Part shown: piece by piece, positions 3,613 through 20,121 of the stretch
Position numbering within the stretch: position 1 is the stretch's first letter
Layout: every line of letters begins with the position of its first letter
Origin: an uncultured Thermoanaerobaculia bacterium
GTDB lineage: Bacteria; Acidobacteriota; Thermoanaerobaculia; Thermoanaerobaculales; Sulfomarinibacteraceae
Direction of reading: 5' to 3'
Length of the DNA: 39,490 nucleotides
Assembly: GCA_964497785.1 (NCBI GenBank)
Contig: CAZCEX010000002.1
Location: forward strand, 1 to 39,490
The notes under the pieces: generated by a model
What the model saw: only the letters and a program-made list of their open reading frames with translations
What the model was told of the DNA's origin: nothing
Database searches by the model: none
Translations under genes and position numbers: made by a program

Positions 3613-3890
3613 CGTTCCCTCCATCTTCGCATTCCTGGATCTGCGTCGCCGCAGCCACTCGGGGCGGGCGACGATACCACGGCGCGGGCTCGAACTATGC
3701 AAAGTCCGTTCCGTAGACCTGACCGCCACAACCTCTGGCGCTTGAACTCTTGCGGAAACGACGAATCCACAAAGACTCTACCGACCTCCGCCCCGGGCCC
3801 TTATATATATAATGGTCCCCCACACTCGACGGGGCTCCTTGCTTGCACGTTTTTCCGGCGCCAAGCAACCGAAAAAGGCCTTGCACAGCA

Positions 3891-3919
3891 TTGACGACAG
3901 GGACGTTGTGACATACAGT
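3891..3919 (+). promoter_or_regulatory. Putative sigma70 promoter of the HTH-TPR-secreted protein operon
   Basis: TTGACG (3891-3896), exactly 17 nt, then TACAGT (3914-3919). It lies about 55 nt upstream of the ATG at 3974. Confidence 0.4.
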
Positions 3920-3973
3920 GTTAAACGTGAAGTGCTCTACCGCCCAGCCCGTGGTGTCCCCAGGAGGTCTCGG

Positions 3974-4387
3974 ATGAGGTCAAAGACTCATCCAGAAGCT
4001 TCCGGACTGCCCGATGTTGGCGGGAGACTGCGCGTCATACGGCGTGAAGCGCGACTCACACAGGCAGAGTTGGCACGCCAAATAGGCATTCAACAATCGG
4101 ACCTCTCTCGGATGGAGAAGGGCGAATATCGGGTCTCTCTCGATAACCTCTTCAAGATCCTCGGCGTGTTCGGCGTCAAGATGTCCGAGTTCTTCGATGA
4201 AGCCCCTGCTCAAAGAGCCGCTGCCCGGCCACTGGAGCAGGAGGACATGCAGGTACTCCACCTGCTCCGCAAGCTGAGCCCGGAAGGGCGCGCCGAGGCG
4301 ATGGGCTTCCTGGAGTTCAAGGTTCGGCGCGAGCAAACCGACCAGCGCGCTCACCAGGCGCGACGTCGCGGGAGAGAGACCGGATGA
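3974..4387 (+). CDS. XRE/Cro-family helix-turn-helix transcriptional regulator (137 aa)
   Basis: ORF 3812..4387 trimmed to the ATG at 3974, with AGGAGG at 3962-3967. HTH_3-type motif LRVIRREARLTQAELARQIGIQQSDLSRMEKGEYRVSLDNLFKILGVFGV. Confidence 0.85.
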   Translation: MRSKTHPEASGLPDVGGRLRVIRREARLTQAELARQIGIQQSDLSRMEKGEYRVSLDNLFKILGVFGVKMSEFFDEAPAQRAAARPLEQEDMQVLHLLRKLSPEGRAEAMGFLEFKVRREQTDQRAHQARRRGRETG

Positions 4388-5292
4388 TCGAGGCACGCGT
4401 GCTTCAGTTGCTCGATGAGGCCCAAGGGGTCTTCGCCGCTGGCGATCTCGAGGGAGCGCTCGAACTCTTCGAGACAGCCGAGTCGGAGGCTCGAAACGAT
4501 GGCGCTGCCGATCTCGCCGACCGCGCCCTGTGCAACGCATCTTTCGTGCGCATCGAGATGGGCCAGGCAGAGGCCCAGATCCCTCGCCTTCGGCAGCTTT
4601 TCATGGCCACGTCCCATACTCGCAACCGTTGCTCCGCCGCCTATAACATCGCTGCCGCCTACATCAACCTGAACGAAATCGACAAGGCATTCGAGTGGGC
4701 CAAACGCTCTGGCGACCTCGCCGAACAGGTGGACGACCCTGCCGTCCGCGCCGGTTCGAACAACCAGGCCGCAACCCTGGCCCTCCGCCTGTCTCACTAC
4801 GAAGAAGCCGAAGAAGGCTTCCACCGCGCTCTTGGGGCCCTCGAGAACCAGACCGATGCCTATCAGCGTGCCAATCACGCGGCTGTTCTCGGCAACCTCG
4901 GTTACGTATTGATGTGCACCGATCGGCTTGCCGCGGGTCTCGGAATGTGCGAGCAGGCTCGTGCCTCTCTTGACGAGGCTGGGGCAGATCACATGGTCTA
5001 CGAGAATCTCCAAGACCTGTGTTACGGCTACATTCTCGATGACCAGCTCGAGCACGCCCAGGCCTGCGGAGAAAAGGCCCTGGACCTGGCGGAAGAGTAC
5101 GAAGATTTCCAGGTCATGAAGAACTGCCTGTTTCTCCTCGCCGAGATCGCCGTGCGCCGGGGCGACACCTTCCGTGCTCGCCGCTTCTTACGCGAATTGA
5201 CTCATTTTTATCCCGAGGTCGAAATGAATGAGGAAATCATCGATGTTTTCCTCGCCACCGATCTCACGAACGTCGTGAACCTGAGGGGGTGA
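4384..5292 (+). CDS. Tetratricopeptide-repeat (TPR) protein, translationally coupled to the HTH gene (302 aa)
   Basis: ATGA start/stop overlap with the HTH gene at 4384-4387. The protein is all-helical with Ala/Leu/Glu-rich ~34-residue periodicity typical of TPR, e.g. AAYNIAAAYINLNEIDKAFEWAKRS and AAVLGNLGYVLMCTDRLAAGLGMCEQA. Confidence 0.75.
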   Translation: MIEARVLQLLDEAQGVFAAGDLEGALELFETAESEARNDGAADLADRALCNASFVRIEMGQAEAQIPRLRQLFMATSHTRNRCSAAYNIAAAYINLNEIDKAFEWAKRSGDLAEQVDDPAVRAGSNNQAATLALRLSHYEEAEEGFHRALGALENQTDAYQRANHAAVLGNLGYVLMCTDRLAAGLGMCEQARASLDEAGADHMVYENLQDLCYGYILDDQLEHAQACGEKALDLAEEYEDFQVMKNCLFLLAEIAVRRGDTFRARRFLRELTHFYPEVEMNEEIIDVFLATDLTNVVNLRG

Positions 5293-6296
5293 TGATGCGC
5301 CGATTCCTCCTCGTCCTGCTCTTCCTCGTCGGCATGACCGCCAGCGCGACGGCCGGGGGCCAGATGACCCTGACTTCCGACGGCCACCTCTTCAAGGTGT
5401 GGTCCTCAGTGGACGGTCTGATCTTAAGCCACCTTGGTCCGAACGATTTTGCCGAAGAATCAGTCATCCCGCAGTCCGTGAGCGTGCCCCTTGAAACCGT
5501 CAAGGTCATCGTCGACGAGCTGACCATGACCGTGTATGTCGTCTGGTCCGACGAGCTTCACGGAGTTTCGAAGGTTCGTCTGGCGATCCATGCCGACGAA
5601 ACCTGGTTCGGCCCACTGACCATCGGCGGACTCGACGGAACCGGCGCCCGCAACCCCGAAGCACTGATCCATCGCGCGCACAGCGTCATCGACGATGGGA
5701 GCCCGGAACCCGAGGTGATCGAGACCACCTTCTTGCACCTCGTCTGGTGGCGCCACGACATCACCGACGGACTGGGACACGCCATTTACCTGGCACTCCC
5801 CCTCGAAGAAGATGGACTGCCAGATTTCAACGGTGTTCAGCCCATCGATCTCAAAGATCTGCTGCCCTTCGGCATTGGGTGCAACGAAGCGCCAGACGTC
5901 AACGGGCTCGCCTATCCGCAGTTCTTCATCGGTGCGGACGGCCTGCCGCTGCTCTTCACCACAGACTTCGGCAACTGCGTCTTCCACATTCTCGGCATCG
6001 ACTACGAGGTCGAAGAGTTCGAGATTCCCGGGACCGGCATCAAACGCCGTCGCCAGATCGCGGTCTTCCGCGCCGGTGGCGAGGTGATGGCGATCCCACC
6101 GGGGCTCATTCTCACTGACGCCAAGATGCTTTTGGGCCAGGATTTCACAGTTCTGATCTACTGGGACGTCGAAGGCGGAGTCGAGTGGGTGCTGTCGAAG
6201 ACCGAGAGCTGGAGCGATGTCAAGCGGCTGCCAATCGGCTCCGGGGTCAGCCACGAACAGGCTGTCGAACTCATCCGCGAACTCGTCAACAACTGA
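5292..6296 (+). CDS. Secreted protein of unknown function (about 334 aa)
   Basis: GTG/ATG/ATG start cluster at 5289-5297 overlapping the TPR stop codon (5290-5292), with GAGGGGG just upstream. Signal peptide MMRRFLLVLLFLVGMTASATAGG. No recognised domain. The exact start (5289, 5292 or 5295) is uncertain. Confidence 0.7.
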   Translation: MMRRFLLVLLFLVGMTASATAGGQMTLTSDGHLFKVWSSVDGLILSHLGPNDFAEESVIPQSVSVPLETVKVIVDELTMTVYVVWSDELHGVSKVRLAIHADETWFGPLTIGGLDGTGARNPEALIHRAHSVIDDGSPEPEVIETTFLHLVWWRHDITDGLGHAIYLALPLEEDGLPDFNGVQPIDLKDLLPFGIGCNEAPDVNGLAYPQFFIGADGLPLLFTTDFGNCVFHILGIDYEVEEFEIPGTGIKRRRQIAVFRAGGEVMAIPPGLILTDAKMLLGQDFTVLIYWDVEGGVEWVLSKTESWSDVKRLPIGSGVSHEQAVELIRELVNN

Positions 6297-10070: not shown

Positions 10071-11908
10071 CGACTCACACCATCCCACTCGACCCTTGGG
10101 CGGACCTCGAGCCGAACCCGGGTCGCACCGAGCACCGGGCCGCTCGTTTGGGTGTCGGCCCGCGCAACGACTCGATACGACACCGTCTTCAGGCCTTCAC
10201 CAAGCCCCGAATGCAACGAGGCGACAACTCCCGGGGGCGCCGCCACGGTCCCTCCGGGAAGCACCACGCTCGTGCCCGGGGTTTCGAGGGCAACCACGAT
10301 GTTCCTTGATGATTCCAGGCGTTTCAGGAGACGAAGTTCATCCTCGAAAGAGGCCGGCTGCAGGGGCCGCGCCCCGAGATCGTAGGCCGTCCAGGAGGCG
10401 CCGTCGGCGACCACGAGGTCGAGCCGGCCATCGGCCATCTGCCGGGGAACTTCCACCTCGAGCATTACGGTCTCGATGGCGCCACCTTCCCGCAGCAAGC
10501 GGACTCGCACCCTGATCGAGTCTCCCGGCGCGACCAGCCGTCGATCCGGCACGATATCCAATATCGAAGCGCCCTGCAGCCCGTCGCGCGAAGCCAGGGC
10601 TACCGCAGTAGACTGAATAGCGACCGGGGCGAACGGCGAGTTCGCCAGATACCCGAGCACAGCCGACGTCCAGGCGGCACACTGGGCTGGAGCATCTCCC
10701 CCCTGAAAGGTCTGGTCGAGAACGAGAGACTCACCGTCCACGAACTCGACCCGAAGACCGATATCGACCGTTTGAAGGCCAAAGCTCCGCCCCCGAGCTG
10801 CGTGAGACGCGTACACCATGAACCCACTCAACAGCGGATTGAGGAGAGGGTGCTCAACGATTCCGAAGCGGTAGACCCTGTCGGACGTTGCAACCTCCAA
10901 CGGCCCGAGTCGCGGCGCCTCACCGAGCTTCGCCAGGACCCCGTGCGCCCGGTCGGCGGTGAGCGATCCGATGATCGGACCGACATTGAACATTTTGAAT
11001 GAGGACACGAGGCTCGGCAGAATGGTGACCACGGAAGCACGAGCCAGAGGAATACGAATCGCGCCTCCAGCGAGAAAGGGATGACCGAAGGCCCAAACCA
11101 CATCGTCCCGGACCTCCGTAACGGTACCGCCGGCGGCGAGGTGGGCATCACCGTTCACCATCACCGCCGCCACCATCGACCCTGGCTGCAGCGGCTCGGG
11201 GGGCGCTGTCACAAGACCGCTTCCCACCGGCGAAGCCACCCAACCCATTCGGCGCCACGCCGCCGCAGTCCAGTCGAGGTCTCTCATGCCGGCGCCCAGT
11301 CCACCAACGGCGACGGGAAACGACCTCACCATCTCTTCGCCTTCCGGAGCCAACCAGTCCAGTACGGTGTCCGCAAGACGCCCCTCGGCCATCGCACCGA
11401 GAATGTCTTCGAGCGGCGGCCTCCCTCCAACTGCGACGACCGGGGTCGCCGGGTTGTCCACCGCCAGATTCTGCATCCGGACAAAGGGGGTCACGCCTCC
11501 GATCGGTTCCGTCGCGAACTGCCATCCAAAGGCCAAGGCGCCGAGCAATCTCCCTTCAATATAAACAGGAGAACCGCTCATTCCGGCCGCTATGCCAACC
11601 TCTTCGAAGCGCTCGTGTTCGAGCCGAATCAGGACGATTTCGTCCTCCGGTCCGTTCGGACCCATGACCCCGAGTATACGAACCGGAATCTCGAGCAGGA
11701 CGCCACCTTCAACCTCGGTGACGCACACTCCCCTGTCCCCCGGCTGCAGATCCGACGGGTCGATGACCTCGACAGAGGCGACGACGGATGACACGGCCAC
11801 GGCGCACAACGCCAGAAAAATGCAACGGGCAACCACAACCGGCACATTGTACCCGCAAACGCGGTGAACCCCATGACCGGCTGAGTCGTTGTCATCTCGC
11901 ACGGGCAT
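10067..11908 (-). CDS. SpoIVB-like serine peptidase, family S55 domain protein (up to 613 aa)
   Basis: Motif GIAAGMSGSPVYIEGRLLGALAFGW...EPIGGVTPF matches the S55 catalytic-serine region (GMSGSP). The start is uncertain. The ATG at 11908 lacks an SD. An in-frame GTG at 11845 would give the signal-peptide-like N-terminus MPVVVARCIFLALCAVAVSSVVA. Confidence 0.75.
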   Translation of the reverse strand: MPVRDDNDSAGHGVHRVCGYNVPVVVARCIFLALCAVAVSSVVASVEVIDPSDLQPGDRGVCVTEVEGGVLLEIPVRILGVMGPNGPEDEIVLIRLEHERFEEVGIAAGMSGSPVYIEGRLLGALAFGWQFATEPIGGVTPFVRMQNLAVDNPATPVVAVGGRPPLEDILGAMAEGRLADTVLDWLAPEGEEMVRSFPVAVGGLGAGMRDLDWTAAAWRRMGWVASPVGSGLVTAPPEPLQPGSMVAAVMVNGDAHLAAGGTVTEVRDDVVWAFGHPFLAGGAIRIPLARASVVTILPSLVSSFKMFNVGPIIGSLTADRAHGVLAKLGEAPRLGPLEVATSDRVYRFGIVEHPLLNPLLSGFMVYASHAARGRSFGLQTVDIGLRVEFVDGESLVLDQTFQGGDAPAQCAAWTSAVLGYLANSPFAPVAIQSTAVALASRDGLQGASILDIVPDRRLVAPGDSIRVRVRLLREGGAIETVMLEVEVPRQMADGRLDLVVADGASWTAYDLGARPLQPASFEDELRLLKRLESSRNIVVALETPGTSVVLPGGTVAAPPGVVASLHSGLGEGLKTVSYRVVARADTQTSGPVLGATRVRLEVRPRVEWDGVSR

Positions 11909-11918
11909 GCGATAGAAT
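11889..11918 (+). promoter_or_regulatory. Putative sigma70 promoter for the TPR/cNMP-binding gene
   Basis: TTGTCA (11889-11894), 18 nt, then TAGAAT (11913-11918), about 19 nt before the ATG at 11937. It lies inside the longest version of the divergent S55 ORF. Confidence 0.35.
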
Positions 11919-11936
11919 CAAAGGTCCGGAAAGCTG

Positions 11937-13649
11937 ATGAGCAAATCTATAACTCCACACCCGTCCCTGGTCGAGCGACTCGTCGCCCTGGCGCGACGAC
12001 TGCGGTCTTTCCACCGCCCCGCCGAGGCTGCCGAGCTGCTCGAGGTTGCCGCGACGCTTTCTCCCCGAGGCAGTCAATTGCGCGAGGAGGCGCAGGCCGC
12101 TCGTGAAGAAGAGGGCATGGAGGATTTTGATCGCGAGTTCAAACGCCGCAACCTCGAGGCATCCCACGCCCTCGGCATGGCCCACATATTCGAGAATCGT
12201 GGCGAGTTCGGTCGTGCCGTCGAGATGATCGATCTCGCCAAGCTCCGAACGCCATTCAACTACCTCGCATACACCACCGCCGGGTTTCTCAATCTTCGCC
12301 ACAACGAGGCGGCCGTCGCCCTCCAGGAGTTCACCCAAGCACGGCGCCTCAATCCACTGGATTACAGGCTCGCTGTCGAGACCTCACGCTGCGCCCTGGA
12401 GACCGAGCAGTTCGAGATCGCACTCGAAAACGCTATCGATGCAATTCTGTTGTCTGCCTGGCGAAGCGAGCACGAGCAGGAGCAAGAGAGGCGTCGTCTG
12501 GACACCCTCACCCGCCTGTGCTCGCTCGAAAACGCCGAAATCGACGCGCTGATGCGCAAACGCAGCGCCGCCCTCCAGAAGGCGTGCGACCACGTCGCTC
12601 TCAGTCAAGCTCGGATCTTCTCGTCCAGTCGCACCCGGCATGGCAGGCCCGCGCCCGTCAAGGTCGGCCAGCCCCACTCCAATCTCCTCGAACAGGCCAA
12701 CGAGCTGCGCTCGATGGGGTTGTTCCGCCACTTCACCGACGACCAACTCATCGCGCTCGCGCAGCTGGTTCGAACACAGAAGATAGAGCACGCCGAGGTC
12801 ATCTTCCGTGAAGATCAGGAAGGACGGGACCTTTATCTCGTGCGCCGAGGAACCGTGCACATCACCCGCAAGACACCGGCCGGCACCCAGATCCTCACCA
12901 CACTGGGATTCGGCTCTCTGTTCGGCGAGGTATCGTATCTCGACAGCGCCGTTCGATCGGCGACCGCCTTCGGCGTCGGATCCGGAAGCCTGTTCGTCAT
13001 TCCGGCGGCCGCCCTCGACATCGCGGTTCAGGAAAACCGCGACCTCGCGGTGAGCATGCTGTGGAGCTTCTGGCACACCCTCGCCGGCAAGGTGAGAGCG
13101 GCGAACTCGCAGATGAGTGAGTTCTTCAGCGCCCCGGACCGCCCCATGGAACCTGAAGAGCATGCCGAAGGGGAACCCGCGCAGGTCTCCGAGCAGACCA
13201 AGCTCGACATCTTGCGCGAGCAGGGCTTGTCCGCACAGGAGATGCGCCTTCTCGCCAAGTACAGCCGCGAGGAGCACTTCAAACCCGGATCGATGGTCTT
13301 TGCCGAAGGCGAGCACGGCGACAGCCTATACATCGTGGTCAACGGCAACATTCGCATCTCTCGCATGGTCCCGGGCATGGGAGAAGAGTGCCTCACGATT
13401 CTCTCCCGAGGCGACGTTTTCGGCGAGATGGCGCTCATCGACGAGCAGCCGCGATCGGCCGATGCGCGAGCACACAACGGTGGATCCACGGTGTTCTCGA
13501 TCAGTCGCACCCTTCTCGAAGAGGTCCTTTCGATGGACCCCGACGCCGCCGTACAATTTCTGTCCCTGCTGTGCCGCCTGCTCTGCCGAAGACTGCGCGC
13601 CATGAACGAACGCCTCGTCGCCTGGCGCATCATGGCCAGCCACCAGTAG
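11937..13649 (+). CDS. TPR-like N-terminal domain protein with two cyclic-nucleotide-binding (cNMP/CAP-effector) domains (570 aa)
   Basis: Two copies of the cNMP-binding signature: GRDLYLVRRGTVHI...GFGSLFGEVSYLDSAVRSATA and GDSLYIVVNGNIRI...SRGDVFGEMALIDEQPRSADARA. The helical N-terminal ~200 aa are repeat-like. No HTH or enzymatic output domain is seen. Confidence 0.85.
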   Translation: MSKSITPHPSLVERLVALARRLRSFHRPAEAAELLEVAATLSPRGSQLREEAQAAREEEGMEDFDREFKRRNLEASHALGMAHIFENRGEFGRAVEMIDLAKLRTPFNYLAYTTAGFLNLRHNEAAVALQEFTQARRLNPLDYRLAVETSRCALETEQFEIALENAIDAILLSAWRSEHEQEQERRRLDTLTRLCSLENAEIDALMRKRSAALQKACDHVALSQARIFSSSRTRHGRPAPVKVGQPHSNLLEQANELRSMGLFRHFTDDQLIALAQLVRTQKIEHAEVIFREDQEGRDLYLVRRGTVHITRKTPAGTQILTTLGFGSLFGEVSYLDSAVRSATAFGVGSGSLFVIPAAALDIAVQENRDLAVSMLWSFWHTLAGKVRAANSQMSEFFSAPDRPMEPEEHAEGEPAQVSEQTKLDILREQGLSAQEMRLLAKYSREEHFKPGSMVFAEGEHGDSLYIVVNGNIRISRMVPGMGEECLTILSRGDVFGEMALIDEQPRSADARAHNGGSTVFSISRTLLEEVLSMDPDAAVQFLSLLCRLLCRRLRAMNERLVAWRIMASHQ

Positions 13650-13787: not shown

Positions 13788-16700
13788 ATGCGTTTCAGGT
13801 TCATCTCGTGTCTGGTCATCGTCCTGCTGGCTTCGGCGGGATTTTCTGCTGCCGGGATCGATGCCCGGATGCTTCGTTTTCCGGACGTTTCGGACTCTCA
13901 GATCGCCTTCGTCTATGCCGGCGACATCTGGGTCGTCGAAAAGGAGGGCGGAGTCGCCCGCCGTCTGTCCTCGCCCGCCGGCGAAGAGACCTTCCCCCGG
14001 TTTTCGCCGGACGGATCGACCATTGCTTTCTCCGGAAACTACGATGGCAATACGGATGTTTATGTGGTTCCGGCGGGCGGCGGCGAGGCCCTGCGGGTCA
14101 CGCACCACCCTGAAGATGACCGATTCCTCGATTGGACGCCCAACGGCGACGAGCTCCTCTTCGCCAGCAGCATGACCTCTGGCACGCGGCGTTTCAGCCA
14201 GATCTGGCGGGTTCCTGCGACTGGAGGAATGCCGCAGAGGCTTGCAGTGCCCTACGGCGAGTTCGGCGTGATCTCCCCCGACGGGCGCACGTTGGCCTAC
14301 CAACCGGCCTCTCGAGATTTCCGGACGTGGAAACGCTACAGGGGCGGCCTGGCGCCGGACATCTGGCTTTATGACCTCGAGGACAAGACCGCTCAGAATC
14401 TGACCGACAACGTGGCCAACGACTCACAGCCGATGTGGCATGCACACACGCTCTACTTTCTGTCTGACCGCGGAGCGGGCATGCGGTCCAACATCTGGGC
14501 TCTCGAGCTCGACTCCGGTGCGACGCACCAGGTGACCGGCTTCGAGGACTTCGATGTTCGCTTCCCGGCCATCGGACCGGCCGAGATCGTTTTCGAAGCG
14601 GGAGGCGCCTTGTACCTGCTCGACCTCGCCTCTGAGGCGGTGCGAGAGGTGGCCGTCGAGGTCGTGACCGATGCAGCAACGCTGCGCCCACGCACCGTGG
14701 GGGTGGCGGATCTCCTCTCCTCCGGTGATATCTCACCCTCTGGCAAGAGAGCCGTGTTCGAGGCGCGGGGCGACCTCTTTACCGTGCCCGCCGAACACGG
14801 ACCGGTGCGAAATATCACGGGCTCCTCAGCCGCTCGCGAGCGTTTCCCCGCCTGGTCGCCCGATGGCGCCGAACTCGCCTACTGGAGCGATCAGAGCGGC
14901 GAGTGGCAGCTCTACTTCAGGCCCGCCGACGGAACCGGAGAGGCACGCAAGCTGACCGACTTCGGGCCGGGTTACCGTTTTCAGCCCTACTGGTCGCCCA
15001 ACGGCGAGACGATCGCCTTCATCGACAACGAGCAGGTGATCCGCTTGATCGACGTCGAGAGCGGGACCCTGACCGCCGTCGATACCCTGCTGTGGAACTC
15101 TTCGTTCCCCGCCCTCGACGCTTTCACCATGAGCTGGTCCTCGGACAGCCGTTGGTTGGCCTATGACAAAGCTCTCGAAAGCCAGATGACGGCGCTCTTC
15201 CTCTTCGACAGCAATTCGAAGGAACTGCACCAGGTCACGACCGGTTTCTACGACACCTTGGGACCTGTCTTCGATGTCGAGGGGGACTACCTCTTCTGTC
15301 TGGTCAACCGCGAGTTCTCACCCTCGTACTCGGACTTCGACGGCACCTGGATCTACGCCAATGCAACCCGCCTGGCCGCCATCCCCTTACGGAAGGACGT
15401 CGCTTCGCCTCTGGCGCCCCGATCCGATGAGGAGGAGGCCGAAGAGCACGACGAAGAGGGCGACGGCGAAAAAGACGGCGAGGATAGCGACGACGCCGAC
15501 GACGCTGAGGAAGACGGCGAGGACAAAGACGCAGAAGAACCGATCGAGATAGATCTTGATGACTTCGGGAGCCGCATGGTTCTGTTGCCACCAGAGGCCG
15601 GCAACTACGGTCGTCTGGCCTCGGTCGAGGGCAAGTTGCTGTACGTCGAAACACCACGCACCGGCGTCGGTGAAGGAGCGGAACCGACCCTCAAGATGTG
15701 GGACCTCGAGGAGCGCGAGGCCAAAGATGTCATCGCAGGCGTCGGCGACTTCGCCCTCTCAGCGGACGGAGAAAAGATCCTGGTAGCAGCCGGGGGTTCG
15801 TTCGCGATCATCGACCCGGCGCCCGGACAAGAAATGGAGAAGCCGCTGCGGACCCAGGAGATGAAGAGTGTCGTCGACCCGCGCTCCGAGTGGCGGCAAA
15901 TCTTCGACGACGTATGGCGCACCGAGCGGGACTTCTTCTACGACCCGGCGATGCACGGCGTCGACTGGCAAGAGATGCAGGAACGCTACGGCGCCCTGAT
16001 CGACGACTGTGTGACCCGCTGGGACGTCAACTTCGTGATCGGCGAGCTCATCGGTGAGCTCAACGTTTCGCACTCCTATCGCGGCGGCGGCGACCTCGAG
16101 GCGGCCGCACGTCATCAGGTCGGCCTGCTCGGCGTGGACTGGGGTCGGAACGAGGGTCAGTGGCAGATCTCGCGTATCGTCGCGCCTGCTTCATGGGAGA
16201 TGGAGACACGGTCACCGCTCGATCTGCCCGGAGTTGACGTTTCCGAAGGCGACTACGTGCTCGCTGTCAACGGCCGACCCCTGGCCGATGCGCCGAACCC
16301 CTGGGCCGGTTTCCAGGGACTCGCGGGCCAGACCGTAGAGCTGACCGTTAATGCACAGCCGACATTCGAAGATTCCCGAACCGTGCTCGTCGAAACCATG
16401 TCGAACGAAGGCCGACTGCGCAATCTCGAGTGGATAGAGAACAACCGCCGCCGGGTCGCCGAAGCCAGCAACGGCCGGATCGGTTACGTCTTCGTGCCGG
16501 ATACCGGCGTCAACGGGCAGAGTGAGCTGGTGCGCCAGTTCCTACCCCAGGCGACGCGCGACGGGTTGATCGTCGACGAGCGGTTCAACGGCGGCGGCCA
16601 GTGGCCGGACCGATTTATCGAGCTGCTCGACCGACCACGAACCGGTTACATTCACCTTCGCAATGGCAACGACCCGGCACTGTCGCCACACTCGCGACCG

Positions 16701-17081
16701 GGGCCGACGGTCATGCTCGTCAACTCGTGGGCAGGCTCCGGCGGTGACGCATTCCCCTACCTCTTCCGGCGTGCGGCACTGGGACCCATCATCGGCACCC
16801 GCACGTGGGGCGGCCTGGTCGGAATCGCTGGCCGTTACCAGCTGATCGACGGCGGTGCGGTGACCCTTCCGACCCTCGCCCTCTACACGCCCGAGAGCGA
16901 ATGGATGCTCGAAGGCCACGGCCTCGAGCCCGATATCGAGGTGCTCGAGAACCCGGCGGCACTCGCCAAAGGCATCGACCCGCAGCTGGAGAGGGCTATC
17001 GCCGAGGTCGAGAGACTTCTCGCGGAGAATCCCATCCAGCCGACAGCCCCGCCCGTGCCAGGAGACCGTACGGCAAAATAG
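13788..17081 (+). CDS. tri: Tricorn protease homologue (S41B family; beta-propellers, PDZ and peptidase domains; 1097 aa)
   Basis: The N-terminus MLRFPDVSDSQIAFVYAGDIWVVEKEGG...RFSPDGSTIAFSGNYDGNTDVYVVPAGGGEALRVTHHP is the characteristic tricorn start. C-terminal S41 core: NSWAGSGGDAFPYLFR...GTRTWGG. AGGAGGGA SD before the ATG at 13788. Confidence 0.9.
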   Translation: MRFRFISCLVIVLLASAGFSAAGIDARMLRFPDVSDSQIAFVYAGDIWVVEKEGGVARRLSSPAGEETFPRFSPDGSTIAFSGNYDGNTDVYVVPAGGGEALRVTHHPEDDRFLDWTPNGDELLFASSMTSGTRRFSQIWRVPATGGMPQRLAVPYGEFGVISPDGRTLAYQPASRDFRTWKRYRGGLAPDIWLYDLEDKTAQNLTDNVANDSQPMWHAHTLYFLSDRGAGMRSNIWALELDSGATHQVTGFEDFDVRFPAIGPAEIVFEAGGALYLLDLASEAVREVAVEVVTDAATLRPRTVGVADLLSSGDISPSGKRAVFEARGDLFTVPAEHGPVRNITGSSAARERFPAWSPDGAELAYWSDQSGEWQLYFRPADGTGEARKLTDFGPGYRFQPYWSPNGETIAFIDNEQVIRLIDVESGTLTAVDTLLWNSSFPALDAFTMSWSSDSRWLAYDKALESQMTALFLFDSNSKELHQVTTGFYDTLGPVFDVEGDYLFCLVNREFSPSYSDFDGTWIYANATRLAAIPLRKDVASPLAPRSDEEEAEEHDEEGDGEKDGEDSDDADDAEEDGEDKDAEEPIEIDLDDFGSRMVLLPPEAGNYGRLASVEGKLLYVETPRTGVGEGAEPTLKMWDLEEREAKDVIAGVGDFALSADGEKILVAAGGSFAIIDPAPGQEMEKPLRTQEMKSVVDPRSEWRQIFDDVWRTERDFFYDPAMHGVDWQEMQERYGALIDDCVTRWDVNFVIGELIGELNVSHSYRGGGDLEAAARHQVGLLGVDWGRNEGQWQISRIVAPASWEMETRSPLDLPGVDVSEGDYVLAVNGRPLADAPNPWAGFQGLAGQTVELTVNAQPTFEDSRTVLVETMSNEGRLRNLEWIENNRRRVAEASNGRIGYVFVPDTGVNGQSELVRQFLPQATRDGLIVDERFNGGGQWPDRFIELLDRPRTGYIHLRNGNDPALSPHSRPGPTVMLVNSWAGSGGDAFPYLFRRAALGPIIGTRTWGGLVGIAGRYQLIDGGAVTLPTLALYTPESEWMLEGHGLEPDIEVLENPAALAKGIDPQLERAIAEVERLLAENPIQPTAPPVPGDRTAK

Positions 17082-17109
17082 CGGCAATCTATTCCGATCA
17101 ATCGACCAG

Positions 17110-17140
17110 GGCCGGAACCGAGAGGTTCCGGCCTTTTTGT
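17110..17140 (+). terminator. Rho-independent terminator of the tricorn protease gene
   Basis: Perfect 10-bp stem GGCCGGAACC (17110-17119) / GGTTCCGGCC (17124-17133), GAGA loop, followed by TTTTTGT. Confidence 0.75.
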
Positions 17141-17158
17141 CGGTGTTTTCTTGGGCTA

Positions 17159-17410
17159 CGTTGGCCGCAACGAAGAACGAAATAGCGCCCCGGGCGGCGC
17201 GTGCCATTCTTTGCATTGTGCGGTTGGGGGCTCGGGGCACAATGCGAAGGGTGGCAATCCACGGGCAACGCAATGGAAGAACTGGCGCGTAGCGGTCTCG
17301 AGGCCGTAGCGCCGAGGAGTTGCTCAACCGAGCAGCGACGAGCTGGGCGCAGCCCAGAAGCGGCATTTGTGTCTGTCGTCGCGGGGCGGGACTACAGGCG
17401 AAGCCTGCTG
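17159..17410 (-). repeat. Left copy of a structured ~250-280 bp repeat (inverted relative to 18234-18517)
   Basis: The reverse complement is collinear with 18234-18517 in six blocks: 17395-17410 = 18234-18249 (16/16); 17335-17364 ~ 18280-18311; 17304-17319 = 18326-18341 (16/16); 17249-17270 ~ 18376-18396; 17199-17209 = 18458-18468 (11/11); 17159-17173 ~ 18496-18517. It also contains a 13-bp hairpin at 17209-17249. Confidence 0.65.
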
Positions 17411-17451
17411 TGACTACCTCGGTCTCGCAACACCCCAAAGGTCCACCCGGT

Positions 17452-17503
17452 CGGACAGGTAGCATTTTATAAAATATAGTATATTAGATTCCGGGAGGGC
17501 ATC
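17452..17503 (+). promoter_or_regulatory. vapBC promoter/operator: AT-rich island with two adjacent palindromes
   Basis: Candidate -35 cGGACA (17452-17457), 17 nt, -10 TATAGT (17475-17480). Perfect 10-bp palindrome TTTTATAAAA (17465-17474), and the 11-bp palindrome ATATAgTATAT (17474-17484) overlapping the -10. GGGAGGG SD at 17493-17499. Confidence 0.45.
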
Positions 17504-17752
17504 ATGAATGTCACCGTTTACGTGCCAAAGGGCATTGAAAATTTATTGAAGAAGGCCGCCGAACAAGCGCGAGTTTCCCCGGCCCGCTTTGTCCAACGAC
17601 TCATCAAACGTGAGCTGGAAGGTGACGAGCAGTCCTTTTCGGAGGGGTTCATCGCTCTTGCCGGAAGCTGGGAGGATGACCGGTCCGCAGAACACATCAT
17701 CCAAGACATTGACAACAACCGCCTCGATTCTCGGCGGCAGGACCTGGCATGA
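17504..17752 (+). CDS. vapB: Ribbon-helix-helix (CopG/Arc-like) antitoxin, VapB-type (82 aa)
   Basis: The N-terminal beta-strand plus two helices pattern VTVYVPKGIENLLKKAAEQARVSPARFVQRLIKREL is typical of RHH. Acidic C-terminal tail. ATGA overlap with the PIN gene at 17749-17752. Confidence 0.8.
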   Translation: MNVTVYVPKGIENLLKKAAEQARVSPARFVQRLIKRELEGDEQSFSEGFIALAGSWEDDRSAEHIIQDIDNNRLDSRRQDLA

Positions 17753-18150
17753 AGTTCCTGCTCGATACGAATATCTGTATTCACTTCCTGAACGGTACGA
17801 ACTCAGGTCTGACCCAGCGGGTGCTGGCGGCCGGCCCCGCGCTGCTGGCGACGAGTTCCCTGAGTGTCGCCGAACTCCGATTCGGCGCTGCCCGGTCGGT
17901 CAGACCGGCCGAGAATGACGCAAGAATCGACCGTTTCGTGGCGGAACTCAAAACGATACCGTTTGACGATTCTTGTGCTCGCCACTTTGCCCGTCTCAAG
18001 ACAAAACAGGCGGCAGCGGGAAGACCCATTCCGGATTTTGATGTCGCGATCGCTGCCACAGCGTTGGCACAGGACATGATCGTGGTGTCCGCCGACCGCC
18101 ACATGGGTGAGATCCTCGGGGTCGGCGTGGAGGATTGGACTTCGGCGTGA
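17749..18150 (+). CDS. vapC: PIN-domain ribonuclease toxin VapC (133 aa)
   Basis: MKFLLDTNICIHFL (first acidic residue), SVAELRFGA, and DFDVAIAATALAQDMIVVSADRH (third and fourth acidic positions). This is the typical VapC layout and size. Confidence 0.9.
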   Translation: MKFLLDTNICIHFLNGTNSGLTQRVLAAGPALLATSSLSVAELRFGAARSVRPAENDARIDRFVAELKTIPFDDSCARHFARLKTKQAAAGRPIPDFDVAIAATALAQDMIVVSADRHMGEILGVGVEDWTSA

Positions 18151-18233
18151 GGGCTGGTTGGAGAGCGAGGGGTTATTGGGGGATCTCGTGGGGCAGCAAG
18201 GTTATTCGGGGCATCACGCGGCTGAAGTTCCCG

Positions 18234-18517
18234 CAGCAGGCTTCGCCTGCCGCATCGCCTCGCGACGGCCGGCTCTGCTGCCGCTTCTGGGCCTGCGGCC
18301 CAGCTCGTCGCACCGCTTCGCTTTGCTCCTCGGCGCTACGGATTCGCAGCAAACAACGCGATCCTTCTCTGTGCGCGTTCCCCGTGGGAGCCACCCCCGC
18401 GCGTTCATGGCCTGGAGATTCCTCGTAACCGCGAGGCCCTCGTGCCAAGAACGACGGGAATGGCACGCCCGCCAAGACAGGCCTTTCGCGTTCTCCGTTG
18501 CGGCAACGCGGCCAATC
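18234..18517 (+). repeat. Right copy of the structured repeat (inverted partner of 17159-17410)
   Basis: Same six collinear blocks as listed for the left copy. Inter-block spacings agree within 1-2 nt, except for one 22-nt longer linker between blocks 4 and 5. Contains hairpins GCAGGC-ttc-GCCTGC (18236-18250) and CTGGGCC-tgc-GGCCCAG (18287-18303), the latter nested in the stem GCGACGG/TCGTCGC (18262-18268/18305-18311). Confidence 0.65.
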
Positions 18518-18554
18518 AGAGAACCAGTGAAGGCGCTCCCAGCGGGGCGTGCCG

Positions 18555-18617
18555 GGTGCATAATTGTGCCAGTACGACCTCTCGGAGCCCAATAGCCTCG
18601 CGCACAATTATGACACC
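18555..18617. repeat. Long stem-loop related in stem sequence to the 17209-17249 hairpin
   Basis: 11 perfect pairs between CATAATTGTGC (18559-18569) and GCACAATTATG (18602-18612), plus 4 further pairs after a 1-nt bulge. 32-nt loop. The stem core TGCATAATTGTGC resembles TGCATTGTGC in the left repeat copy. Confidence 0.55.
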
Positions 18618-18677
18618 GGGCAACCCTCGGGGAGCACGTTGCGGCTCTGATCTCCAGCCTACGAGGTAGGCCGCCGT

Positions 18678-18772
18678 TCGCATGAGCAGCGTGGTCGCAG
18701 ACGATCCAACCTTCTGCGCGCGACCGCACTGCTCATGCGACGCTGGGATGCCTCCATCTGGAGGCATCCCAG
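18678..18772. repeat. Two tandem long palindromic stem-loops
   Basis: Hairpin 1: 18678-18698 pairs with 18720-18740 (21 positions: 19 Watson-Crick, 1 G-T, 1 mismatch; 21-nt loop). Hairpin 2: CTGGGATGCCTCCA (18743-18756) and TGGAGGCATCCCAG (18759-18772) form a perfect 14-bp palindrome. No T-tract follows on either strand. Confidence 0.6.
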
Positions 18773-18879
18773 AAGGCCGTGGCTGCGGAGAACGCCGGCC
18801 GAGATGAACGACCCGACCGAGGCGGACATGTTGCCCGTTCCGGTGCGACAACAAGGCCAGGGCTCAAAACTACGCCATA

Positions 18880-20121
18880 ATGCCCCTCATGAAGTGGTGG
18901 TCTCTCCTCGGTTTGTTGCTCGTCGGTTCCGTCCTGCCATGCCCCGCCCAAAACGTCGGCCTGGGTTACGACGTCGATGCCCCATCCCGCCTCGCCGACC
19001 CCACCCCTGGCGATCCAGCGCCATCCGACGCGATCACCCTGCGCATCACGGCCATAGGAGACGTCAACTTCAACCGCAGCAGCCAGGAGGTGCTCGCCGA
19101 GGGCATGAATCTGTGGGACGAGATGTTCGCCTTCGACGTCCTGACGCGGGGCCTCGACGGGGTCATCGACGGCGACGTCAACTTTGCGAATGTCGAGACC
19201 GTGCTCACCAACCGCAATGACTTCGAGCCCCCGAACCCCGACAAGTCCTACACCTTCCGCAGTCACCCCAATGGCCTCGTGGAGCTCATCAAAATCGGCT
19301 TCAACCTTTTCAGCCTGTCCAACAACCACGCCTACGACTACGGGCCTGTTGGCATTGACGAAACCCTAAAATGTATTGCCGAGCTGGCCCAATCCGAACC
19401 CATCGCATGGGCCGGAATCGGTCACGACTTCGACGAAGCCGCTGCACCGGCCATCTTCGAGGCCAAAGGCGTGCGCGTCGGACTGTCGGCCATCGGCATC
19501 GGCGGCGCCGATGAGGCCCGAGCCGGCCCGGATATTCCGGGCGTCGCGCACCTGTCAAAATACAAGACAGCCCTGGCACGTCTTCGCGACGCCGACGTCG
19601 ACATCCGGATTCTGTCGATCCACGATGGGCTTTCCGGCATCCTCTACCCAATCGACCGCCAGATCATCATCGGTCGAGAGGCCGTAGGGGAATATGGCGT
19701 CGACGTCGTCTTCGGTCATCACACCCATACCGTTCAGGGCATCGAACTGTACGGCGATGGCGTGATCTTCTACGGTCTCGGCAACGGCATCATGCGAGGT
19801 GCTGCCAACATGAGCGACCGAATGGTCGACGAAGACCTGCATGCCGATTTCGGTCTGCTCGCCCGCCTCGATTACGTCATGGATCCGCCGTCGCGAAAGA
19901 TCTCCCTGAAGCGAGTCGAAGCCGTGCCGCTGACCGACATGCACCAGCAGACGCGGCCCATGTCCCCTGGTGACGCCGCGGCAAGAATCGAGACCCTCAA
20001 CCGGATCTCTGAATATCCCTATCTTGAAACGGACTGGAACGACACCTGCCCGGTTGCCGACCGGACGACGCCACTGGTTTTCCGCACGGAATCTAATGCC
20101 GGCGTCTACGTGCCTGAGTAG
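18880..20121 (+). CDS. CapA-family metallophosphatase-like protein (poly-gamma-glutamate CapA/PgsA-type domain; 413 aa)
   Basis: FANVETVLTNR...YTFRSHPNGLVELIKIGFNLFSLSNNHAYDYG and SIHDG...VVFGHHTHTVQGIE are the CapA/metallophosphatase-type motifs. N-terminal signal sequence MKWWSLLGLLLVGSVLPCPAQN. Start could be 18880 or 18889. Confidence 0.8.
   Translation: MPLMKWWSLLGLLLVGSVLPCPAQNVGLGYDVDAPSRLADPTPGDPAPSDAITLRITAIGDVNFNRSSQEVLAEGMNLWDEMFAFDVLTRGLDGVIDGDVNFANVETVLTNRNDFEPPNPDKSYTFRSHPNGLVELIKIGFNLFSLSNNHAYDYGPVGIDETLKCIAELAQSEPIAWAGIGHDFDEAAAPAIFEAKGVRVGLSAIGIGGADEARAGPDIPGVAHLSKYKTALARLRDADVDIRILSIHDGLSGILYPIDRQIIIGREAVGEYGVDVVFGHHTHTVQGIELYGDGVIFYGLGNGIMRGAANMSDRMVDEDLHADFGLLARLDYVMDPPSRKISLKRVEAVPLTDMHQQTRPMSPGDAAARIETLNRISEYPYLETDWNDTCPVADRTTPLVFRTESNAGVYVPE

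Follow-up and report, generated by a model that had tools for sequence, protein, structure and literature searches.

The stretch of DNA analysed here (the window; 39,490 nucleotides of contig CAZCEX010000002.1, from an uncultured Thermoanaerobaculia bacterium) carries a small vapBC toxin–antitoxin (TA) pair between tri, which encodes a tricorn-type protease, and capA, a gene of the CapA/PGA_cap family. Two copies of a non-coding repeat, designated A-left and A-right or simply the arms, lie in opposite orientation on the two sides of the gene pair, and a third copy, B, is head-to-head with A-right, giving the order A(+), vapBC, A(-), B(+). An earlier note on this DNA had described the inverted repeat and offered three explanations for it: a non-autonomous cassette resembling a MITE (a miniature transposable element with inverted repeats), an invertible segment, or a TA module caught between two copies of a dispersed element. 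Based on comparison with related loci, the tri–capA region is probably a hot spot of accumulating and recombining hairpin-rich repeats that holds a resident vapBC module, which the arms neither move nor invert. The parts of the locus are listed below, where L002, L011, L012 and L013 are related loci and the family is the dispersed repeat to which B belongs, represented by a profile hidden Markov model (HMM).

13788..17081, plus strand: tri, tricorn-type protease gene (Pfam PD40, PDZ_Tricorn, Peptidase_S41, Tricorn_C1); left border of the islet
17110..17138, plus strand: tri terminator, hairpin GGCCGGAACCGAGAGGTTCCGGCC followed by a T-run; kept in L011 (5687-5715) and L002 (6781-6812)
17159..17410, plus strand: A-left, the left arm, a repeat copy (family HMM E = 3.2e-6, HMM positions 12-122)
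17182-17275, plus strand: family 5' domain of A-left, including a hairpin at 17202-17256
17276-17410, plus strand: A-specific 3' module of A-left, with a hairpin at 17343-17357 and a terminal hairpin, CAGGC-GAA-GCCTG, at 17395-17407
17464..17503, plus strand: AT-rich promoter/operator region of vapBC (ATTTTATAAAATATAGTATATTAGAT), conserved in L011, L012 and L013
17504..17752, plus strand: vapB, antitoxin of 82 amino acids, an open reading frame (ORF) with a 4-nt overlap with vapC
17749..18150, plus strand: vapC, PIN-domain toxin of 133 amino acids (Pfam PIN, 6.9e-15, above cut-off)
18234..18517, minus strand: A-right, the right arm, a repeat copy (family HMM E = 0.016, HMM positions 7-125; alignment to A-left)
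18368-18490, minus strand: family 5' domain of A-right (profile match 18490-18368 on the minus strand)
18234-18367, minus strand: A-specific 3' module of A-right, containing a hairpin at 18287-18303
18519..18800, plus strand: B, full-length family copy (family HMM E = 1.8e-55), head-to-head with A-right
18552-18619, 18678-18740 and 18743-18772, plus strand: hairpins 1, 2 and 3 of B
18880..20121, plus strand: capA, CapA/PGA_cap family gene (Pfam PGA_cap, 4.6e-45); right border of the islet

The tri terminator is the final stretch common to relatives before the repeats start, and vapB and vapC are the only ORFs between the arms. A survey of ORFs and Pfam domains bore out the previously noticed absence of a transposase or recombinase gene inside or beside the islet; the genes around it are tri, capA and one for a radical SAM protein. 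A sigma-70-like site is predicted at 17452-17480, ahead of vapB. By its predicted parts (a PIN toxin, a small overlapping upstream antitoxin gene and a promoter of its own), vapBC is an ordinary type II module. NCBIfam VapC models match the vapC product, but below their cut-offs, and VapB has no match in Pfam or NCBIfam.

All six collinear blocks that had been reported between the reverse complement of 17159-17410 and 18234-18517 were recovered, each at the same positions. When reverse-complemented, 17395-17410 is identical to 18234-18249 (CAGGCGAAGCCTGCTG), and a repeat search returned 17335-17348/18298-18311 (14/14), 17299-17319/18326-18346 (21 nt, 90%), 17199-17209/18458-18468 (11/11) and 17164-17179/18489-18504 (16 nt, 94%). 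Gapped local alignment of the reverse complement of 17100-17503 with 18151-18620 scored 94, compared with a mean of 21.0 (standard deviation 2.6) and a maximum of 32 in 200 dinucleotide shuffles; the blocks are thus better than expected by chance for GC-rich sequence. Using blastn, a core of 111 nt (76.6% identity, E = 3.5e-15) and an outer high-scoring segment pair of 54 nt (78%, E = 0.003) were found between the arms, and about 55% of columns are identical when the arms are globally aligned end to end. The inner halves are the best-conserved part (the earlier note had placed the best-conserved block at the inner edge of each copy), and the near-symmetric framing described there also holds, with 93 nt from the inner edge of A-left to the vapB start and 83 nt from the vapC end to the inner edge of A-right. 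No third copy of the arms was detected by blastn within the window.

Two single-base "insertions" in 18280-18311 are compensatory: the hairpin CTGGGC-GCA-GCCCAG (17343-17357) becomes CTGGGCC-TGC-GGCCCAG (18287-18303), which is longer by one base pair. The predicted folds of the two arms are more stable than those of shuffled sequences (z = -2.9 and -3.4). A coding function of the arms was considered and ruled out, as indels in the arms and in the family are not multiples of three and conservation tracks stems. To judge by their divergence of 25–45% and their many indels, the arms are old copies.

The inverted-repeat geometry is all that fits a phase-variable segment, in which recombination between the arms would flip vapBC. 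The longest identical run between them is 16 nt, which is too short for efficient RecA-dependent exchange, and neither an invertase nor a recombinase gene was found within the islet or close to it. The vapBC promoter is inside the segment, so inversion would switch nothing. In addition, the window and two further assemblies, L001 and L137 (at least two samples; assemblies only), are all collinear across vapBC. These points make an invertible segment extremely improbable, and this part of the earlier proposal is not supported.

To characterize the repeat family, the core of B was used as the query in genome and metagenome scans. The core pattern gave six loci in genomes, in records titled Thermoanaerobaculales or uncultured Acidobacteriota, and a looser pattern gave at least 119 stretches in metagenomes, many of them at contig ends. 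With nhmmer, at least 157 non-overlapping copies were detected in 121 of the 133 sequences collected, and their flanks differ. Matches to the core pattern in viral contigs (four) were regarded as chance, since none was accepted by the family HMM. The family lacks terminal inverted repeats (TIRs): when the 60 nt at one end were compared with the 60 nt at the other in 111 full copies, the best inverted match averaged 6.2, against 6.2 in shuffles. A-left, A-right and B likewise have no TIRs, their match being no better than that of shuffles. Among recurrent neighbouring genes, no transposase or recombinase recurs beside family copies; a recurrent "tricorn" cluster of neighbours proved to be mostly our own syntenic loci. 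Tblastn revealed no VapB or VapC relative near family copies, repeat-family loci among the matches listed being considered. No match to Rfam 15 was found in the window at gathering score; at E<=5, region 16900-18950 gave chance miRNA and snoRNA matches only, and 15 further loci (about 28 copies) gave tRNAs only at gathering score. A description of this repeat family, or of vapBC bracketed by such repeats, was not found in the literature.

A plain MAFFT alignment of 108 distinct full copies was folded with RNAalifold. The predicted structure consists of a long 5' hairpin and a three-way junction closed by GGCC/GGCC, which bears two hairpins, one of about 20 bp and the other variable; compensatory changes occur in 37 of its 49 pairs. 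Three motifs, AGGCCGCCG, CGACGCTGG and CCAGAAGGCCGG, are invariant and unpaired in the family. For the named structure, 95.3% of cells were paired compared with 83.1% in shuffles (0/500), and both sides had changed in 38 of 50 pairs. As a control, sliding the structure by 1-3 columns reduced pairing to 31–51%. A brute-force screen of column pairs for further covarying helices was uninformative except for one extension of hairpin 1. B itself has a predicted RNA fold of -151 kcal/mol (z = -7.3).

Cells with G·U or U·G outnumbered those with A·C or C·A (215 vs 50), and positions favouring G·U prevailed by 28 to 7 (p = 5e-4). This excess indicates that one particular strand of the family is under selection to fold, be it as RNA or as single-stranded DNA; the family may act as a transcribed structured RNA, or as a single-stranded DNA substrate of some mobilising enzyme.

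Only part of each arm is recognised as a member of this family. With the 108-copy HMM, the E-value is 3e-6 for 17182-17275(+) and 0.016 for 18490-18368(-), and both matches span profile positions ~7-125, that is, the 5' domain with the long hairpin. A profile of five B copies matches the window at 17137-17265(+) with E = 3e-11. In their outer halves, the arms are thus homologues of the 5' domain of the ~260-nt dispersed repeat. No family HMM recognises the inner halves (17276-17410 and 18234-18367), whose resemblance to B is limited to short motifs with a common order, CGACG..CTGGG-hairpin-CCCAGAAG. We treat the arms as a putative sub-type, "A", in which the family 5' domain is joined to a distinct 3' module containing, for example, GCGACGAGCTGGGC-N3-7-GCCCAGAAGCGGC and CCGTAGCGCCGAGGAG. 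Of the three earlier explanations, the one in which vapBC sits between two copies of a dispersed element is alone in agreeing with the data, and it holds in part: the outer halves belong to such a family, and the inner halves were found, in the related loci and viral contigs searched, only in these arms. The earlier note had also allowed that a repeat scattered in many copies, free of any TA association, might adjoin vapBC by coincidence, which would count against its proposal. For the outer-half family this is the situation observed, with at least 150 copies and none beside vapBC among the matches listed; the dispersal seen concerns the outer halves.

We then analysed the relatives of vapBC itself. 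Homologues of VapC with 73–83% identity were located in five further loci (L011, L012, L013, L138 and L139), and VapB is 76–85% identical in the first three. L011 is syntenic with the window: it contains tri, vapBC, a gene for a 311-aa protein, B(+), capA and the radical SAM gene, with a VapC that is 80% identical. A comparison of the tri–capA junction in related genomes, suggested earlier as a search for an empty site, was informative here, as L011 carries vapBC at this site without arms. Its tri terminator (5687-5715, corresponding to window 17110-17138) directly abuts the vapB promoter (L011 5716, window 17464); window 17139-17463, including the whole of A-left, has no counterpart in L011, and no A-type sequence follows vapC there. 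Compared for a target-site duplication, the junctions read TTTTTG/.../ATTTTATA in the window and TTTTTT/ATTATATA in L011, only the T-runs being common in genomes that are 79–83% identical. The counterpart of B upstream of capA is orthologous in L011. In L012, L013, L138 and L139, vapBC is found in other contexts, without A or B copies.

Across these relatives, nucleotide homology of vapBC (74–83%) is confined to 17464-18150; it begins some 40 nt upstream of vapB, with an AT-rich operator-like stretch, and ends with the stop codon of vapC. That five vapBC relatives lack arms and that none of the loci collected for the repeat family encodes a VapB or VapC relative indicates that the repeats and the TA module have separate histories. 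The compact vapBC module itself appears to relocate. We also observed that the module keeps sharp homology limits across at least five different genomic contexts, and that in L138 it lies beside a second PIN/MazE pair.

The same relatives bear on a possible cis-acting role of the arms, in which, for instance, the complement of A-right would stabilise or terminate the vapBC transcript at its 3' end, or the pair would be insulated from tri read-through by A-left. The predicted stability of both arms and the selection of the family fold on one strand are consistent with such a role, and an influence on mRNA stability is known for repeats of the REP type that lie downstream of genes (PMC3733652). 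However, the five related modules do without arms, A-right is antisense to vapBC, so that transcription of vapBC would yield the strand opposite to the selected one, and no terminator-like site was found in A-right. A regulatory function of this kind is highly improbable.

The tri–capA site differs between closely related genomes. L001, a 9.8-kb ENA contig with an identical VapC, is 99.97% identical to the window (same strain) and has 280 extra bases at window position 17205. This insert is 75–83% similar to window 18519-18800 in the same orientation, that is, a B-type copy in tandem with A-left, and the order in L001 is B'(+) A(+), vapBC, A(-) B(+). The form in the window equals L001 minus the stretch between the 5' leaders of the two copies, with the junction in CGTGCC, a motif that is invariant across the family. 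The strain variants therefore differ by recombination between adjacent repeat copies.

Among more distant genomes, L011 and L002 are 93–94% identical to each other and each about 83% identical to the window. L002 lacks vapBC and has instead B(+), 717 bp without a convincing ORF and B(-), followed by a META-domain gene and a third B copy; no vapBC remnants were detected in it by tblastn. The copy upstream of capA is in plus orientation in L011 and in the window and in minus orientation in L002 (L011:7950-8260 vs L002:9466-9719), and the switch point lies inside the palindrome of hairpin 3. These comparisons of assemblies show that copies have been gained, lost and flipped at the tri–capA site, at both strain and species level. 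As a separate observation, the 3' half of the first B copy of L002 (beside tri) is 93.6% identical to the capA-proximal copy of L011, and their upstream flanks are also similar, which implies a rearrangement.

The most economical scenario is that copies of the hairpin-rich dispersed repeat accumulate and recombine between tri and capA, and that the compact vapBC unit (its own promoter and two genes, 17464-18150) resides within this hot spot. The arms would be old, diverged members of one sub-type in opposite orientation, one per side of vapBC, accompanied by the canonical copy B head-to-head with A-right. With four element copies within 1.8-2.1 kb, some must flank the only gene pair there on each side; in addition, selection would act against any insertion or deletion disrupting an addictive TA pair, so that copies may end up on both sides.

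Under this scenario the two arms may have arisen separately, as two insertions of a sub-type with few copies, or together, through a single local inverted duplication. In the latter case, one A-type copy would have been copied in inverted form to the other side of vapBC by template switching or by rearrangement between repeats. Such an event fits the restriction of the A-specific 3' module to the two arms, and the site does rearrange via repeats, as seen in the copy lost or gained in L001 and in the flip between L002 and L011 with its junction in a palindrome. However, the arms differ by about 25–45% with many indels, so the event would be old; the flanks beyond the arms are not duplicated, and nothing separates it from two insertions of a low-copy sub-type. 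We consider a local duplication unlikely.

Several observations weigh against a simple hot spot with a resident gene pair. The sequence of the inner halves was not found in 811 kb of related loci (allowing up to two mismatches per block), nor did an arm-specific pattern match in viral contigs, these being the two collections in which the A-type module was searched. The arms are each other's only known relatives for the inner, A-specific module. Furthermore, L008 has a small gene between tRNA-Gly and tRNA-Cys that is likewise enclosed by two convergent family copies. Convergent pairs have inner spacings of 717 bp (L002, where vapBC sits in L011), 784 bp and 823 bp, which hints that a distance of about 0.8 kb may be non-accidental; these are three cases, and they may be chance. 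As for its layout, L008:3295-5398 contains tRNA-Gly, B(+) at 3795-4061, a 204-aa membrane-like ORF(-) at 4179-4793, B(-) at 4845-5081 and tRNA-Cys.

The convergent pair of L008 around its 204-aa ORF is analogous to what a composite MITE-like cassette would look like, in which two non-autonomous copies bracket vapBC and the unit of about 1.36 kb was or is mobilised in trans. The geometry at vapBC fits, the arms are the closest relatives of each other, and pairs of MITEs are known to move cargo, e.g., blaPER-1 between two 439-bp MITEs (PMC3934969). On the other hand, neither the arms nor the family has TIRs, the arms are only 55–77% identical, and armless vapBC is found in L011, at the same site, as well as in four other contexts. 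The unit of arms plus cargo was found nowhere else in the five vapBC loci, the 811 kb of loci and the viral contigs, and the two copies of L008 belong to different sub-types. The cassette proposed earlier is thus very unlikely, and we prefer the hot spot with a resident vapBC.

A broader reading is possible but stays on the unlikely side: small genes of about 0.8 kb, vapBC among them, may be captured or retained by convergent pairs of family elements, and the family may represent an undescribed class of structured RNA or of single-strand-based mobile element in Acidobacteriota. The traits behind it are the length of about 260 nt, the long hairpin domain, the three-way junction, the three unpaired motifs, co-oriented arrays, (CCGNNN)n flanks and a partner gene for a four-helix-bundle protein in a subset of copies.

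The family was compared with known repeat systems. It resembles REP, BIME and REPIN elements (PMC3733652) in that its GC-rich hairpins are intergenic, numerous within a lineage and selected for structure on one strand; copies are clustered, pair up as head-to-head dimers, form mosaics with other small repeats and differ in presence or absence between close strains. REPs are single hairpins of 20-40 nt with a GTAG or CGTC tag, those with GTAG being accompanied by a RAYT transposase (PMC3733652). In contrast, the present family is about 260 nt long and has at least three helices, a long 5' hairpin domain, a three-way junction and the motifs AGGCCGCCG, CGACGCTGG and CCAGAAGGCCGG. No IS200/RAYT-like ORF was present among the recurrent neighbours of family copies.

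Modular structured repeats also include pneumococcal BOX, enterobacterial ERIC/IRU, Neisseria Correia elements and Deinococcus SNRs, of which Correia and ERIC elements have TIRs. Our family is similar to them in size range (100-300 nt), in modules that are lost or swapped (A-type vs B-type, 5'-truncated copies), in stable predicted folds and in intergenic location; it differs in having no sequence relation to them, no TIRs and much more extensive covariation (38/50 pairs). HEARO/IscB and TnpB omega-RNAs and the IS110 bridge RNA are likewise multi-helix RNAs of 150-300 nt, with many copies per genome and a strand-specific covarying fold, but the present family has no Rfam match and no TnpB, IscB or IS110-type ORF recurring beside its copies.

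The MITE-bracketed blaPER-1 of Acinetobacter is alike in that two non-coding repeats of several hundred bp flank a short cargo with no transposase inside (PMC3934969). Those MITEs are near-identical, have TIRs and leave target-site duplications, and the unit has moved, whereas here the repeats are 55–77% identical without TIRs and armless cargo is found at the same site. Intervening sequences of 23S rRNA, such as the Coxiella IVS (PMC4990558), are small selfish non-coding elements with a PF05635/TIGR02436 gene and inverted repeats around a small ORF; unlike them, the family lies outside rRNA, a four-helix-bundle gene is missing from most copies, and the arms in the window flank vapBC. Integron attC sites measure about 55-140 nt, have R''/R' core sites and share one orientation, each cassette carrying a single site at its 3' end. 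The arms, of 250-280 nt, are in opposite orientation, and no GTTRRRY/RYYYAAC core pair was seen at their ends, as judged by eye without a formal attC model. With its many contexts and predicted conserved fold, the family fits the broad class of dispersed structured intergenic repeats, an assignment that covers the family and the outer arm halves.

Neighbouring copies on one contig are co-oriented in 29 of 35 pairs (27 contigs with at least two copies), including all eight pairs that are 2-9 kb apart; no clear orientation bias of copies relative to flanking genes was found, based on crude ORF calls. The co-orientation may reflect a replication-strand or transcription-unit preference. Hexanucleotide microsatellites, (CCGNNN)n or the complement, often flank copies on either side and also fill gaps between tandem copies (examples are GTACCC GTACCC, GTGGCC GTATCC and GGCAGC GGCAGC; sites include L067:~460-540, L085:~4530-4620, L106:~11900-11990 and L016:~4840-4900). 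Other short repeats beside the elements are CTGCGGGCG(A/G)GACGCCCGCACCACAA, a small GC hairpin whose complement occurs in L002 (~6850) and L011 (~7850), and GTCATTCTGAGCGAGCGAAGCGAGTCGAAGAATCTC. These two short repeat families recur in the downstream flanks of L073, L024, L030, L070, L037, L102, L078, L052 and L101, and of L128, L044, L086 and L016. The surroundings of the elements are thus mosaics of several repeat types.

In six to seven loci, a gene for a four helix bundle protein (PF05635 23S_rRNA_IVP / TIGR02436) is located upstream of a repeat copy, 15-45 nt away and on its strand: L028:139-597(+), L046:85-537(+), L104:271-645(-), L050:859-1233(-), L070:1-303(+) and L034 (3' end of the gene before 360). 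These proteins are 72–84% identical to one another, the downstream flanks differ among loci, and in L050 the gene lies between two direct family copies. The protein family includes Avd of diversity-generating retroelements; no reverse transcriptase was seen near the loci with this gene and the repeat.

Considering these results, the idea of a MITE-like or invertible vapBC cassette, which is unsupported, gives way to an ordinary one, namely a TA module in a repeat-rich recombination hot spot. The repeat family, a by-product of the analysis, may be worth more than the vapBC finding itself. It is widespread and a well-defined candidate for RNA-family curation, with about 260 nt, unusually strong covariation, a G·U strand bias, no Rfam entry and an occasional four-helix-bundle partner. 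It could also be of use in testing by what means structured repeats spread in uncultured Acidobacteriota and remodel their intergenic regions.

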